From Candidatus Omnitrophota bacterium (GTDB lineage Bacteria > Ratteibacteria > UBA8468 > MWAK01): DNA of 12,104 bases. Each line of letters starts with the position of its first letter. Position 1 is the first letter of the stretch. Positions 369 to 11,633 of this stretch are shown piece after piece. The DNA lies in assembly GCA_043797665.1 (NCBI GenBank), contig JAZDPL010000064.1:1-12104 (forward strand), written 5' to 3'. The translations under genes were made by a program, and so were the position numbers. The notes under the pieces were generated by a model. It worked only from the letters and a program-made list of their open reading frames with translations. It searched no databases and had not been told where the DNA came from.

Positions 369-1526
369 ATGAAAAGAAACAAAAACTGCTTGAAGAAATT
401 AGAAAGATTGAACAAAGCCCTTCATCACCAGGAGCCTGATAGAGTACCAATCAGCGATTTCTTCTGGGGGAGTTTTCTGGAAAGATGGCGAAAAGATTTA
501 AACCTGCCTCCCGATACCGATATTTATAAATACTATGACCTTGATTGGATAGTAACGGTTCCCAACATGGACCCGCACATAAAACAGTTTGAAATAATAA
601 AAGAGACTGATGAGGAAATTATTGTCAAAACAGGTTTTGAAGCCCATCTTGAAAAAAAATATAAATATCCCATGCCGGCTTATATAAAGTTTGAAACCGA
701 TACGATTGAAAAGATGGAGGCCTTCCGATTTGACGACCCGTGGGACAAGCGGCGTTATTTAAGCGGCGGCGACAACCAGATTGCCGGGGTCGGAGACGGA
801 TTCACCCGGAACCTGCCGCCCTGGGTTGACACCGTCAAATCCTTATACCCTGAATTTCCCGTTTACGGAAGCGTATGCGAGGCCCATGAAGAATTGTGGA
901 GGATTATCGGAACCGAGAACGTAATGCTGTGGATCGGGCTTTATCCTGAAGAACTGACCAAATTTATAAAAAGAACCGGTGAATTCCTTCTTGAAGTTGC
1001 AAAGGCACAGATAAAATATGCCGGTGGTATGCTTGACGGTCTGGTTGTCTGGGGCGACGTTGCCTATAGAAAAGACCTGTTCTTTTCACCGGACTTCTGG
1101 AGAAAAACCTTCAAGCCAGTTGTCAAGAATATAGTTGACGTGGCGCATGGCGCGGGAATTAATGTCATCTACCACGGATGCGGAAACGTTCACAAAATAT
1201 TGCCCGATTTCATTGAAGTGGGCATTGATGCCTATAATCCTTTGGAATATAAGGCGGGTATGGATGCCGTGGAATTACGGCGGCAATACGGACATAAACT
1301 TGGCATGTGCGGAAATATGGACGTAACGCTCTGGGCAAACGGAACCAGGGAAGAGATAAAAAAAGCGGTATTAACCAAACTCAATGCTGCCAAAGGAGGC
1401 GGGTTTATATTCCAGTCAGACCACTCCGTACCAAGCAATATTTCAGGACAGAATTATGATTATGTCATTAAACTCGTCCGTGAATACGGCAAATATCCTT
1501 TACAACTCGAGAAATATGACCTGTAA
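369..1526 (+). CDS. Uroporphyrinogen decarboxylase (URO-D)/MtaA-CmuA methyltransferase superfamily protein, 385 aa
   Basis: N-terminal 'ERLNKALHHQEPDRVP', 'WGDVAY...FSPDFWRK.FKP', 'YHGCG' (HxCG), 'CGNMD', C-terminal 'GGGFIFQSDHSVP'. GGAG at 357-360 precedes the ATG. Probably not the canonical hemE. Confidence 0.88.
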   Translation: MKRNKNCLKKLERLNKALHHQEPDRVPISDFFWGSFLERWRKDLNLPPDTDIYKYYDLDWIVTVPNMDPHIKQFEIIKETDEEIIVKTGFEAHLEKKYKYPMPAYIKFETDTIEKMEAFRFDDPWDKRRYLSGGDNQIAGVGDGFTRNLPPWVDTVKSLYPEFPVYGSVCEAHEELWRIIGTENVMLWIGLYPEELTKFIKRTGEFLLEVAKAQIKYAGGMLDGLVVWGDVAYRKDLFFSPDFWRKTFKPVVKNIVDVAHGAGINVIYHGCGNVHKILPDFIEVGIDAYNPLEYKAGMDAVELRRQYGHKLGMCGNMDVTLWANGTREEIKKAVLTKLNAAKGGGFIFQSDHSVPSNISGQNYDYVIKLVREYGKYPLQLEKYDL

Positions 1527-2577
1527 AGAAAGAGTCTTGACCGCATTTAACCTTAAGGAACCTGACCGTGTGTCTGCCTGGCTGGGCGCTTCACCTGAAT
1601 TTCGGGAACTGGCGCGGCAGCATTTAGGGCTGGATGATGACGAAAGTCTTTCGGTGCGCCTCGGAGACGACTTTCGCCGGGTCTGCGCCAAATACGCCGC
1701 TCCGGCCGCCGGTAATCAATCGACTGATTTACCGGAGAGGATAACCTCCTGGACCCCGTTCGGCATACCGCGGCACGGTTATGGCTACGGACAGCCCTTA
1801 GGACACCCGCTGGCAGACGCCACCGTCACGGAAATCCACCAATATCCCTGGCCGGACCCCAGGTGGATAGACGTTTCCAATGTCCGCAGCGAAGCGCTGA
1901 AGTACAACGGCAAGTATGCAATTTTGGGCGGCGACTGGTCTCCGTTCTGGCATGACGCCATTGACCTCTTGGGCATGGAGAACCTTTTTCTTAAGATGTT
2001 TGACCAGCCGGAAGCGGTTGACGCGCTCCTGAAACATATCGTTGACTACTACGCAGCCGCCAACCAACGCATCTTTGATACCGCCGCAGGCGCCATAGAC
2101 ATCTTATTCATCGGCAATGACTTCGGTTCTCAAAACGGACCATTGGTCGGTGAAAAATTATTCAGGCGGTTTATCCTTCCGCAACTTAAGCGGCTGGTTG
2201 ACCTGGGCCATGATTATGGCGTAAAAGTCCTGCTGCACTGTTGCGGCGGCTTCGTACCTCTGATGCCCGCCATGATTGAAATCGGCCTGGACGGCCTGCA
2301 ATCATTACAGCCGTCCTGTCCCGGCATGGAACCTACTGCACTTAAGGCTGAATTCGGTAAGAAAATCTTGTTGAACGGCTGCATTGACACTCAGCATGTG
2401 CTGATTGAAGGCAGACCTGCTCTGGTAAAAGCCAAAACACGCGAGGTCCTCCGGATAATGAAGCCGGGCGGCGGTTACGTCGCTTCGGCCAGCCACGACT
2501 ACCTTCTGCCGGAGACGCCGGTAGAAAACGTCATCGCCATGTTTGATACCATAAGGGAATACGGCGCTTATGAATAA
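1516..2577 (+). CDS. Second URO-D/MtaA-CmuA superfamily protein, 353 aa (start revised from 1384 to ATG 1516)
   Basis: Family-typical start 'MTCKERVLTAFNLKEPDRV', plus 'GNDFGSQNG', 'LHCCG', 'NGCID', 'PGGGYVASASHDY...TPVEN'. ATG 1516 overlaps the upstream gene's end by 11 nt, consistent with an operon. Confidence 0.88.
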   Translation: MTCKERVLTAFNLKEPDRVSAWLGASPEFRELARQHLGLDDDESLSVRLGDDFRRVCAKYAAPAAGNQSTDLPERITSWTPFGIPRHGYGYGQPLGHPLADATVTEIHQYPWPDPRWIDVSNVRSEALKYNGKYAILGGDWSPFWHDAIDLLGMENLFLKMFDQPEAVDALLKHIVDYYAAANQRIFDTAAGAIDILFIGNDFGSQNGPLVGEKLFRRFILPQLKRLVDLGHDYGVKVLLHCCGGFVPLMPAMIEIGLDGLQSLQPSCPGMEPTALKAEFGKKILLNGCIDTQHVLIEGRPALVKAKTREVLRIMKPGGGYVASASHDYLLPETPVENVIAMFDTIREYGAYE

Positions 2578-5412: not shown

Positions 5413-5586
5413 CGGGGTCACCCCAGTCCAAGGATAAGGGTTCACTTCACCCGGTTTAATATATAGACCCATCCAGAAGTGATTATTTGGGTATTATATA
5501 TTATTGCGTATTCCGCTCAAAGGAACCTACCCCACCATCCAGTCGCAATAATTTTGACTTAGAACCTGGAAATGAATATACCCGGG

Positions 5587-8664: not shown

Positions 8665-10746
8665 ATGATGAATAAAATTCCTCTACGCCTAAATATCATT
8701 GTTTTATTTTTGCTTGTAACTACTTTAATCCACGCACAATCTAACGATACCCTGATGGGAAATACCACTCTTACGAAACCAACACCAGGTAATTGGGTAA
8801 TAATCCCATATGGTGGACTTATTGATAGATCAACATTCACCCATTCGGGTGAAACAGTTGGTAATGTTATTCAGAAAATTGCAAGTAACAACAATGCTTT
8901 TAAAAACCTTGTACAGCAATACCTGGAGCCATATTCAATATTGTGTCATGACAAGTTACTATCCACCTTTAAAATTGCCACTCCTCCACTTGTAAATATT
9001 CTTGCACATTATCCAATCGGTTCCGAACAACCAGCCTGGGTAGACTTATTTAGGGAAGGGCATTTTCAGCTGTATTATAATGCAAACCTAATTAGAGTAT
9101 TCCTGAAAGGAACTGATCCTAAAGGTAGTTTTAAAAAATACCGCTCAGTTATAAGACTTCCCATTCAGGATGTTATGAATACTGAAGGTATGTCGATTAA
9201 AAATATAGAAGTGTACGTGTTCACTAACGATTATGCAACCACAGAAATAAGCCTAAACACAATTCCCATTACTTATGCCATAAACGACATTAATCTGTCG
9301 CCAAAACGTAAATCTATAGATTTAGACAGCATCGAAGAATTTCTCGAATCTGGTGTTATTTTGGAAGCCGTAGAAGTTGACAAAAATAATAATTTGTTTT
9401 TCTATGGCAGAAAAGCTTCAAATCAGACCATTGCCGATAAACCTGTTTCTATTTCAGATATTGCAGTGGTATATAGATCAGTATTTCACTATGGATATAA
9501 CTCCCCTTATATAAGTCTTGATAAACATGAGGATAACAGATATGCCAAAGTAAATTTTGGAGGGCATCTTGAAAATACTCATGTCGGCTATGTAGTTTTA
9601 GAAGCAGACAAATTATTTAAAACGCTATGCACAGGCATTGATCCCAACACACATGAACTCGTAAAATCTAAAATTACAAAAGATGTTCCTGGCTTTTTAA
9701 CAGAAAATGAAAGAGAATTCTTAGAAGATTCTGTTGAAGGACATAGTCGGATACGTTTTTGGTTTTATCCTGATAATATTGGTACCGTGACTGATGGTTC
9801 AATAGGTACTGTTCTAACATATCAGTTTCTCGCAGATGCCGAACGACTGGATGTTAAAATAAAAGTAGCTAAAGCAGTTAGAGAAACAATTGACCATCTG
9901 AATACAAATTTTATTCAGTATGAAAAAGCAGAAAATACTTATAAAGAACTAAGTACCGTAGGACGTATTATGGCTCTTATCAACTGGCTGAGAGAAATGA
10001 ATATGGGAGAAAGAATTGAATTGGATGATTTGCTTTCGGTTAAAATACCTGCCTTTTCTACTCCCGAAAAAACAAAGAGAATGCTGGTTATTACTGCAGG
10101 ACCATATTCTGAAGACTTACATATATCCAGTCAAAACGTCAGAGATTATACAAAAACTTATTACATTTCTTATCTACTTGATAAATATCCTCCATCTACT
10201 TCAAATGAAGAATTCCTTGAAATAGCCAAGAATTATTTCTCTCAAATTGATACCACCGAACTATATCCACCGAAATATAAGGAGATTAAATCCGAAGTTG
10301 ATTATTATGAAGGTCTTATCGATTCGAATAATGAAAAATTGGAGTTAATGAAAAAAGAAATTGAGGGAAAAAAAGAAATACTTGACAGCTCTAATTCGAG
10401 CGATATAGACCAGTGTAACAACCTAATTAATAACTATAACAACTTGTCGGCAAATCAGGAATCTTTGATTAACGTTTATAAATCAAAGATAAATGAATTG
10501 AACAGTATGGATAATATTCAATCACAAGAAATTGATTCTATTGGTGGCGGAATAAGCCTTAATCCTAAAGAATTTAAGCGAACAGTAGTGAACAGAAATT
10601 CACCTGAACTAAGTAAGATAGTAAGAATAAAAAGTCAATTAAAATCTTCTGGCAATACGGCTAAATCTGGAGATTGGATTCGGAGTAATTCAGGAATGGG
10701 TGGAGCCAGAATCAATAAATTACCACATAGTGTCGGTCTCCAGTAA
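8665..10746 (+). CDS. Secreted hypothetical protein, 693 aa, AT-rich, with a coiled-coil segment near the C-terminus
   Basis: Sec-type signal 'MMNKIPLRLNIIVLFLLVTTLIHA|QS', AGGA RBS, long open frame. Internal 'NTHVGYVVLEADKLFKTL..GIDP', 'RFWF' and 'GGGISL' motifs are loosely reminiscent of DUF1598-like domains (tentative). Confidence 0.75.
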   Translation: MMNKIPLRLNIIVLFLLVTTLIHAQSNDTLMGNTTLTKPTPGNWVIIPYGGLIDRSTFTHSGETVGNVIQKIASNNNAFKNLVQQYLEPYSILCHDKLLSTFKIATPPLVNILAHYPIGSEQPAWVDLFREGHFQLYYNANLIRVFLKGTDPKGSFKKYRSVIRLPIQDVMNTEGMSIKNIEVYVFTNDYATTEISLNTIPITYAINDINLSPKRKSIDLDSIEEFLESGVILEAVEVDKNNNLFFYGRKASNQTIADKPVSISDIAVVYRSVFHYGYNSPYISLDKHEDNRYAKVNFGGHLENTHVGYVVLEADKLFKTLCTGIDPNTHELVKSKITKDVPGFLTENEREFLEDSVEGHSRIRFWFYPDNIGTVTDGSIGTVLTYQFLADAERLDVKIKVAKAVRETIDHLNTNFIQYEKAENTYKELSTVGRIMALINWLREMNMGERIELDDLLSVKIPAFSTPEKTKRMLVITAGPYSEDLHISSQNVRDYTKTYYISYLLDKYPPSTSNEEFLEIAKNYFSQIDTTELYPPKYKEIKSEVDYYEGLIDSNNEKLELMKKEIEGKKEILDSSNSSDIDQCNNLINNYNNLSANQESLINVYKSKINELNSMDNIQSQEIDSIGGGISLNPKEFKRTVVNRNSPELSKIVRIKSQLKSSGNTAKSGDWIRSNSGMGGARINKLPHSVGLQ

Positions 10747-10858
10747 CCATTCTCTCTACCAACACAAAAACTGGTTTAGTGCGGCGGATTGCTAATCCTT
10801 AAAATTCAATTTTAATCGGAGGTTTTTTCTTGAGCTAATCCCCAGAATTCCCTTTCAT

Positions 10859-10911
10859 TGTCATTCCCGCGTGTAGTAAGCGGGAATCCAGTCATTGCGC
10901 ATGGCAATCTC
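10859..10911 (+). repeat. Palindromic intergenic repeat units (GTCATTCCCGC...GCGGGAATCC type plus a shortened GTCATTGCG...GCAATCTC unit)
   Basis: TGTC-ATTCCCGC-gtgtagtaa-GCGGGAAT-CCA is followed directly by GTC-ATTGC-gcatg-GCAAT-CTC. The first has the ATTCCC...GGGAAT core also found in Neisseria dRS3-type repeats. Confidence 0.7.
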
Positions 10912-11053: not shown

Positions 11054-11344
11054 TCACTGTGTTACCTTTATGCCAATATCTTCAAATATTTTATTAAGGG
11101 AATTGAAGCCTTCAATAACCATAGGGACATCTTCTTCTCTTACGAAACTGGTTAATACAAAATAGTCATTATCAAAAAAACACCTAAACTCTATACTTTT
11201 ATAATGAAATCTGAAATCACCCAAACCATAATAGACATCTGTACCTGAATCTTTTCTGTTGGTAAAATCTAATGTACTTCCTTCATTTTTTACTACCCCA
11301 TTCTCAATCAAATAGTTCGCCAACTTTATCCCATCAATTTTCAT
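11054..11344 (-). CDS. Hypothetical protein, 96 aa
   Basis: Open frame with AGGA 7 nt before the ATG, downstream of a strong promoter and a structured leader. No family recognised. Confidence 0.6.
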   Translation of the reverse strand: MKIDGIKLANYLIENGVVKNEGSTLDFTNRKDSGTDVYYGLGDFRFHYKSIEFRCFFDNDYFVLTSFVREEDVPMVIEGFNSLNKIFEDIGIKVTQ

Positions 11345-11393
11345 CGTAGTTTCCTATAGGTTAATATTTACCGTGGCTGACCTTTCCTCCAAT

Positions 11394-11567
11394 AAAAAAG
11401 GGGCTACAAATCCCCCTACCGGTAACCGCTAAGTTAATCCGATAAAAAAACCGTAACCCCTTACTGTGCTTTAACACAGGAGGATTACAGCCTTTCCCTT
11501 ACTTAGCGGTTAAGTAGGGAACCCTACTTTAAGAAAAAAAGCTGTAAACTTTCATCTTTTCAAAGAA
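11394..11567 (-). ncRNA. Putative structured leader RNA/attenuator with alternative pairings (architecture like phage C4/CI antisense-immunity regions)
   Basis: Several interlocking complementary segments: 12-nt perfect pair 11423-11434/11501-11512; hairpin AAGTAGGG-tt-CCCTACTT; a terminator hairpin; three related U-tailed boxes. The G-U pairs work on the minus strand only. Confidence 0.6.
11444..11495 (-). terminator. Intrinsic terminator-like hairpin inside the leader
   Basis: Minus strand GGCUGUAAUCCU-C-CUGUG-uuaaag-CACAG-UAA-GGGGUUACGGUU followed by a U run: 12-bp lower stem with G-U pairs and a 5-bp upper stem. Confidence 0.6.
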
Positions 11568-11573
11568 CTTTAA

Positions 11574-11602
11574 ATTATATCTTTTTGTGGAAAAGAAGTC
11601 AA
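11574..11602 (-). promoter_or_regulatory. Near-consensus sigma70 promoter
   Basis: Minus strand TTGACT (11602-11597), 17-nt spacer, TATAAT (11579-11574). Predicted start near 11567. Confidence 0.82.
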
Positions 11603-11633
11603 AATCAATTGCGGCTGAATGATGGGGTAGGGG

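Follow-up and report, generated by a model that had tools for sequence, protein, structure and literature searches.

The DNA upstream of a 96-aa open reading frame (ORF) in a Candidatus Omnitrophota bacterium appears to encode a real, uncatalogued and rare structured RNA, and our folding and comparative analyses lend strong support to one fold and fair support to a switch between two. This leader is a ~180-nt untranslated stretch 5' of the ORF, within positions 11345..11602 on the minus strand of the 12,104-nt stretch that we analyzed (hereafter the window; assembly GCA_043797665.1, contig JAZDPL010000064.1). Its family is missing from Rfam, and it is a reusable module that sits before unrelated genes or right after stop codons. 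Intact copies are predicted to be bistable, and a 7-nt address that is re-coded from copy to copy is the predicted deciding contact. The explanation that we prefer, tentatively and at a little less than an even chance, is that this boxA-headed leader of acquired DNA is a transcription attenuator that would be tipped to 'off' by its own short terminated RNA.

A structured leader missing from Rfam

An earlier note on this DNA had proposed a promoter-driven leader RNA with mutually exclusive pairings, and that core is supported, as the pairings are conserved and compensatory changes are found in homologues. The TTGACT-17-TATAAT promoter is present, with 11 of 12 consensus matches and a place among the two best of 26 sites in the window, and so is the 12-nt perfect inverted repeat (11512-11501 and 11434-11423). 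All of the strings that the note quoted lie at the minus-strand positions given for them, except that the first hairpin was off by one base and runs from 11529 to 11512. Absent from that account were the boxA, a second terminator rod of 24 bp and the recurrence of the module before unrelated genes or directly after stop codons. The parts of the leader and its surroundings are as follows.

11599..11632, minus strand: island promoter box, one of 55 copies in the genome; runs into the -35 hexamer; context, outside the RNA family
11574..11602, minus strand: sigma70-type promoter, TTGACT-17-TATAAT; transcription would start near 11569-11567
11557..11569, minus strand: boxA, predicted NusB/NusE site; the identical motif starts the rRNA leaders of the phylum, and TTCTTTGA is invariant in 5 of 5 copies
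11530..11547, minus strand: segment A (box1 of the earlier note); pairs with B in the early and terminator folds
11512..11529, minus strand: hairpin H1, tip of domain 1; in the read-through fold, its 3' arm becomes part of the outer helix
11502..11511, minus strand: variable address of 7 nt (11508-11502) plus three fixed bases; together they form a 10-nt bulge in the terminator fold but are base-paired in the read-through one
11482..11501, minus strand: segment B, whose partner is A or C
11464..11479, minus strand: small hairpin common to both folds
11439..11462, minus strand: segment C with the first U run (11450-11444); 3' arm of B:C or 5' arm of the 24-bp domain 2; B:C plus this U run is a possible terminator, T1
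11423..11433, minus strand: address complement, in the apical loop region of domain 2
11398..11422, minus strand: 3' arm of domain 2, including segment D (box3 of the earlier note, 11409-11398)
11394..11399, minus strand: second U run, which follows domain 2 and is the predicted terminator T2; every copy long enough to include it (4 of 4) has retained the U run
11054..11344, minus strand: 96-aa ORF, 31% GC against 48% for the genome
10771..11013, strand not assigned: island-end repeat module with an exact 28-bp tRNA-Ser(GCT) fragment (10771-10798), attachment-site-like

The 226-nt leader folds more stably than its shuffles (z -3.5; 0 of 200 reach the same stability), as does the segment 11390-11535 (z -5.9; 0 of 200 equally stable). 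The check on novelty that the earlier note had proposed came out in its favor, with no match at E<=1 in the window against Rfam 15; when the leader and the four homologue loci described below were searched at E<=10, only unrelated sub-threshold matches appeared. Topic searches of the literature, whose coverage leaves out most subscription journals, found no description of the motif. Near-identical DNA occurs in contigs from two other runs, over 11357-11581 with 0 differences and over 11387-11586 with 3 differences, which shows presence of the DNA only.

Five near-full copies, four of them in genomes of one phylum

Collecting homologues for compensatory change, as had been suggested, yielded four further near-full copies and so five in total (window, G013, L025, G009 and G003). 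The G013 copy was found by blastn (the L024 and L027 loci are the same contig), the L025 copy, on a metagenome contig, by an exact pattern (one true of two matches), and the G009 and G003 copies by a covariance model. G009 lacks the inner hairpin and G003 is cut by the contig end, with no other assembly containing its missing 3' end, which leaves three intact copies (window, G013 and L025). Carriers make up 4 of the 65 genomes of the phylum.

Three copies have their own promoter: TTGACT-17-TAYAAT also precedes G013 and G003. The L025 and G009 copies have none and begin 0-7 nt past an upstream stop codon. Sequence 3' of the second U run is not conserved among the copies.

A rebuilt covariance model returned no more full copies in the genomes of the phylum. 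With limited scoring of candidates, its version R2 found no copy in 86 genomes outside the phylum and none in 47 viral integrase loci, and five leader patterns gave 0 matches in viral contigs; likewise, with limited scoring and no positive control, R2 found none in 79 genomes of another phylum that carries a close integrase or in five further sequence entries. Blastn returned nothing against plasmids and two unrelated 27-nt matches against phages. Several candidates were set aside as chance: pattern matches inside protein genes at L023 and L026, a 31-nt match in G032 without any leader motif, and 12 of the 17 weak R2 matches viewed, which by eye had no leader layout. L132 and L133 (E 0.01-0.04) were dropped for lack of a boxA, the sole feature checked there.

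Copies of the 5' half only occur at five loci (G000 C61, G000 C52, G009 C185, G009 C237 and G013 C152). Among the weak R2 matches viewed, G000 C61, L113, L114 and L115 were retained as halves; the G000 C52 half came from separate searches. The break in half copies tends to fall at the address or immediately beyond it, and two end at the same base before a tRNA-like junction. At L126:10535-11104 (-) and L127:691-1260 (-), a hicB-hicA pair is followed directly by a 5' half leader, and both half leaders stop at the same base before a junction that resembles a tRNA 3' end; the L127 half lies within a 16S-23S spacer region, after a tRNA fragment. In the half leader at G000 C61:56730-56830 (L032), a predicted pairing joins segment A to the ribosome site of the gene that follows, and this copy is possibly a derived translational repressor.

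A conserved pairing chain and two competing predicted folds

The conserved pairings form a chain, A:B, B:C and C:D, that can be drawn as two folds. Fold R is a single rod consisting of an outer helix with the 7-bp address, the B:C helix and the small hairpin. Fold T has two rods. In the first, A:B is capped by H1 and the address falls within a 10-nt bulge; the second is the C:D rod of 24 bp, whose tip carries the address complement and whose foot adjoins a U run. In the five-sequence alignment, which was fitted to the structure model, 98.3% of 174 cells of fold R are paired and 13 of its 39 pairs changed on both sides, a result that 0 of 500 shuffles reach; an unfitted three-sequence MAFFT alignment gave 11 of 55 double changes. 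All seven address pairs are compensatory, such that the central 7-bp helix is re-coded in each copy and is still paired. Double-sided covariation is thin for T: domain 1 shows it at 2 of 20 pairs and domain 2 at 1 of 26, and all other pairs are invariant or G-U-compatible. T therefore rests on energy, on the conservation of A and D and on G-U-compatible changes.

The energy gap between R and T in the three intact copies is 4.3, 0.3 and 3.2 kcal/mol. In each of them, the best fold that shares no pair with the minimum-energy fold (R) lies below the minimum of all 150 shuffles (z -6.0, -9.5 and -7.1). Masking either strand of the address raises the expected number of C:D pairs from 0.2, 8.7 and 1.7 to 23-24, and all three copies flip to T. 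When prefixes of increasing length are folded, A:B is present between ~84 and 114 nt; B:C appears at ~120 nt and the address helix at ~144 nt. Direct-path barriers between the folds are 40-48 kcal/mol (upper bounds), which suggests that the choice of fold would be made during transcription.

Cognate 11-nt address duplexes have predicted energies of -14.0 to -18.8, against -1.4 to -11.2 for 20 non-cognate pairs. Co-folding of the short RNA with the full leader, by a method that cannot represent loop-bulge kissing, gave no address-driven binding and was weakly self-specific (-7.5 to -9.8 versus -4.3 to -6.9 kcal/mol). The first U run doubles as a helix arm and is broken by a C in two copies, where its partner has a G; comparison of the copies indicates that the second U run, not the first, is the conserved one.

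Parts of the earlier scheme fared less well. It had paired box3 with GGCUGUAA, which is likely wrong: D:C reaches -16.9, -18.9 and -16.9 kcal/mol and D:GGCUGUAA only -9.2, -6.2 and -8.2 kcal/mol in the three intact copies, so that the better partner of box3 is C, the segment before the first U run. The proposed role of GGCUGUAA in a three-way choice among boxes finds no support, as the chain described above is conserved instead. A competing hairpin with ACCGC in its loop occurs in two intermediate prefix folds of the window copy only, its 18-nt core is unfolded on its own in 5 of 5 copies, and the variable bases lie in the 10-nt bulge rather than in that loop. The GGAGG at 11390-11386 stands ~40 nt 5' of the ATG, which makes it an improbable ribosome site for the 96-aa ORF.

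boxA at the start of the leader

The 5' end of the leader RNA is AGTTCTTTGA(A/G)A, which resembles the boxA consensus GYTCTTTAANA (PMC5725501). The same 12-mer lies just 5' of 16S rRNA (five loci), 23S rRNA, RNase P RNA and a CRISPR array in the phylum, and Rfam confirmed the RNA at two 16S loci and at the 23S, RNase P and CRISPR loci. Sites before RNase P RNA or a CRISPR array are L156:48-453 (-), L139:1501-1852, L146 and L138. Seven of the 30 boxA sites examined, plus L127, head a known RNA, and most of the others look like chance. Across the phylum the 12-mer is not enriched relative to a reversed control, so it is position, not count, that serves as evidence for boxA. Exact matches in G000 number three, all of them leader copies. 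The leader's boxA has the form used in the rRNA operons of the clade and opens an untranslated RNA in the sense orientation, and all 4 carrier genomes encode NusB and Rho.

Mobile settings and unrelated downstream genes

The G013 and G003 copies lie inside elements that are integrated at tRNA-Thr(CGT) and carry a tyrosine integrase and an excisionase, together with DUF5659 or a DUF3854 primase. The window copy belongs to an AT-rich unit made up of island box, promoter, leader, 96-aa ORF and the repeated end module with its exact 28-bp tRNA-Ser fragment; no integrase was found in the 12,104-nt window. The ~30-bp island box occurs at 55 sites in G000, against none in the reversed genome. Its copies cluster in islands with a common orientation; they mostly lie just 5' of sigma70-like promoters, at variable distance, and sometimes after repeats that resemble integrase arms. 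In the window, two such boxes, 11632-11599 (-) and 5525-5558 (+), face each other, and none precedes the G013 and G003 copies in the sequence examined.

The gene downstream differs from copy to copy: a 96-aa orphan, a 568-aa protein with a P-loop-like motif, a C39-peptidase-like protein and a gene truncated after 13 codons. Two copies have no complete gene downstream, and none of the three complete ones matches PHROGs or PADLOC. As a test for a metabolite riboswitch, the downstream genes are unrelated and offer no consistent pathway. The 96-aa ORF belongs to no Pfam, PHROGs, PADLOC or NCBIfam family and has two homologues, one near-identical and one distant; its Atlas matches are under 0.9, and its structure model (pLDDT 78.8) has no fold match at E<=0.001.

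The P-loop motif of the 568-aa protein (L027:468-2174 (+)), which is encoded in a bacterial integrated element, was recognized by eye. Its Atlas look-alikes are unnamed, and in the nearest Atlas clusters 95-100% of those members that have a record are archaeal, which is a lead only. Elsewhere in the window, a REP-like palindrome (10859-10890) is inserted in the island-end module and has ~190 genome matches at <=7 mismatches, on both strands. The ORF at 8665-10746 (+) encodes an AT-rich (34% GC) 693-aa protein with a start that resembles a signal peptide, no Pfam, PHROGs or PADLOC family and a diverged relative in another run. A second URO-D-like ORF (1384-2577 (+)) overlaps the end of the first by ~140 bases if counted from its first ATG, and its real start is probably near 1510.

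A candidate self-tipped attenuator and its alternatives

In the attenuator that we prefer, A:B would form first and leave the address in a bulge. If the address then met its complement, one long rod would result, D would stay free and polymerase would read through the second U run. If either address strand were already occupied, C:D would form its 24-bp rod directly before the second U run, and transcription would stop. The occupier may be previously transcribed leader RNA with an unpaired address, which came from the copy itself or from another with the same code and stopped at either U run. This is the simplest trigger because the terminated forms leave the address unpaired, cognate duplexes are predicted to be stronger than non-cognate ones and the copies share no opposite-strand promoter. 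The outcome could be a burst of downstream expression on entering a new cell, followed by shut-off, with a separate specificity for each element. boxA may recruit host Nus factors that would shield the untranslated stretch from Rho and steer folding. Termination at the second U run in T, read-through in R and a trigger in trans are all inferred.

Several observations weigh against this attenuator. There are few copies: of the five near-full ones, one is cut by a contig end and one lacks the inner hairpin, and five other loci keep the 5' half only. Address-led binding was not reproduced by the co-folding model, the variable helix could simply be an unconstrained stem, and the first U run in the window copy may end most transcripts regardless of address. 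The downstream genes are unrelated cargo rather than lytic or replication regulators, such that the benefit of a burst is not evident. A related and more speculative proposal, which we regard as unlikely, is a self-templating RNA immunity switch in which terminated two-rod leaders would capture nascent leaders of the same code and force them into the same terminated fold. As T exposes both the address and its complement, this would need no processing, counter-transcript or element protein; the host Nus complex at boxA would set the folding race, and each element would be an orthogonal 7-base channel.

A purely cis-acting attenuator is possible, if rather improbable. Here the folds would compete during transcription, elongation speed or Nus loading at boxA would set a fixed or growth-linked level of read-through, and the address helix would vary merely because its sequence is free. 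The near-equal energies of R and T, the barriers (40-48 kcal/mol on direct paths, as upper bounds) that put the choice during transcription and the lack of address-specific trans binding in co-folding all suit this idea, as does the report of mRNAs under the control of boxA alone, one of them from a toxin-antitoxin gene (PMC5725501). It leaves unexplained why both address strands are single-stranded and exposed in T in 3 of 3 intact copies, with conserved flanks. We think it quite unlikely that the leader is instead a stand-alone non-coding RNA, protected by boxA and ended by the second U run, with the RNA or a piece cut from the long rod acting elsewhere and the downstream gene incidental. 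boxA does head stable RNAs in the phylum, two full copies start 0-7 nt after a stop codon without their own promoter, and every copy has a different downstream gene. However, no convincing outside target emerged: the address 11-mer has two extra matches in 2.69 Mb against ~1.3 expected, and the available flanks of the other four copies hold no address matches; the conserved bistability would also better suit a cis switch.

A translational switch with reversed logic, in which the long rod would free D to cover a ribosome site (off) and the two-rod fold would free that site (on), strikes us as doubtful. In 4 of 4 copies, the purine run that follows the second U run is a possible partner of D (-5.9 to -14.1 kcal/mol, with one copy's fold using the U run more than D), and the pairing predicted for segment A in the half copy at C61 is of this kind, but the 24-bp stem of the two-rod fold leads straight into a U run, which is a terminator arrangement, and the GGAGG that is paired in the window is ~40 nt from the start codon. 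Highly improbable, in our judgment, is an action at the DNA level, in which the element would serve as a hairpin or recombination site (similar to attC or to a promoter stem-loop) for the shuffling of cargo genes and RNA folding would be incidental. The leader does sit among repeated island modules, and half copies tend to end at the address or immediately past it, with two sharing the exact end base before the tRNA-like junction. Integron attC sites follow the rule RYYYAAC...GTTRRRY, with an unpaired spacer; the leader matches this rule in its left arm but not in its right, and it is paired throughout where the spacer would be, which does not support an attC site. Conserved G-U pairs make the helices specific to one strand, and promoter, boxA and U run are transcription signals. 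A role for the address in RNA-guided recombination was likewise set aside, as no address match was found in the available flanks. A pT181-type attenuator switched by a counter-transcript is the explanation to which we give least credence: a consensus scan of four copies found no opposite-strand promoter that they have in common (two have no site at all and two have a single weak, unrelated one each), and the sequence after the second U run is not conserved.

Comparison with known systems

C4 and CI RNAs are multi-stem small RNAs, folded as a cloverleaf or a double stem-loop, that show their recognition boxes in loops. C4 relies on short complementary boxes that differ between elements and give each a separate specificity. 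The leader is like C4 in having such boxes, and upstream and downstream complementary sites in one transcript are found (A:B, B:C, C:D and the address pair); the multi-stem fold with boxes in loops is absent, as the predicted folds are one long rod or two and the address is paired in the rod. As to a phage or satellite setting, two of five copies lie in elements integrated at tRNA-Thr, and the patterns and model searched gave no match in viral contigs or in 47 viral integrase loci. The earlier note had likened the leader to the C4/CI family. Membership is not supported, because there is no Rfam match, the folds are rods rather than a cloverleaf, and tabulation of the downstream genes as it had advised turned up no antirepressor, kil, icd, ant or ash gene among the three tested (PHROGs). 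From P1/P7 C4 (RF01695) and the c4-a1b1 motif in particular, the leader differs in that it matches no Rfam family, lacks a cloverleaf or two-box code and an icd or ant gene, and has intrinsic termination as its predicted output; c4 motifs are listed in a table of PMC2864571, and further literature for comparison is in PMC8546580 and PMC12189769.

Phage P4 offers a precedent: CI RNA, itself derived from the leader, base-pairs at sites of the same transcript and so causes termination (PMC4825925). As described there for P4 CI (seqA, seqB and seqC) and the Gifsy-1 IsrK leader, ours is an untranslated leader of a mobile element with upstream and downstream complementary segments in one transcript, and, as in P4, the output would be premature termination and the regulator is proposed to come from the leader itself (PMC4825925). 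It is unlike P4 CI in lacking a Rfam match and in having a host boxA at its start, two long rods with one address helix and unrelated cargo downstream. The leader would function like P4 CI yet stand outside C4/CI. In pT181 and pIP501, on and off folds alternate and an RNA-RNA contact at an exposed loop biases the choice to off (PMC3753616). The leader shares the alternative read-through and terminator folds, here in silico, and differs in having no conserved counter-transcript promoter, both complementary strands in one transcript and no recognized plasmid Rep family downstream. As in the boxA/Nus leaders of rrn, suhB and a ParE-like toxin gene, boxA starts an untranslated stretch (PMC5725501 and PMC12360218); the available text of those two sources describes no bistable, address-coded attenuator behind boxA of the kind predicted here.

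The leader thus adds an RNA family that is absent from Rfam, of clear two-state design, from an uncultured phylum and rare in the sequences searched. If the mechanism holds, it would provide a compact (~180 nt) attenuator whose specificity can be re-coded through 7 bp, with five natural codes already in existence, and it would join host boxA/Nus control to a P4-like, self-derived antisense switch.
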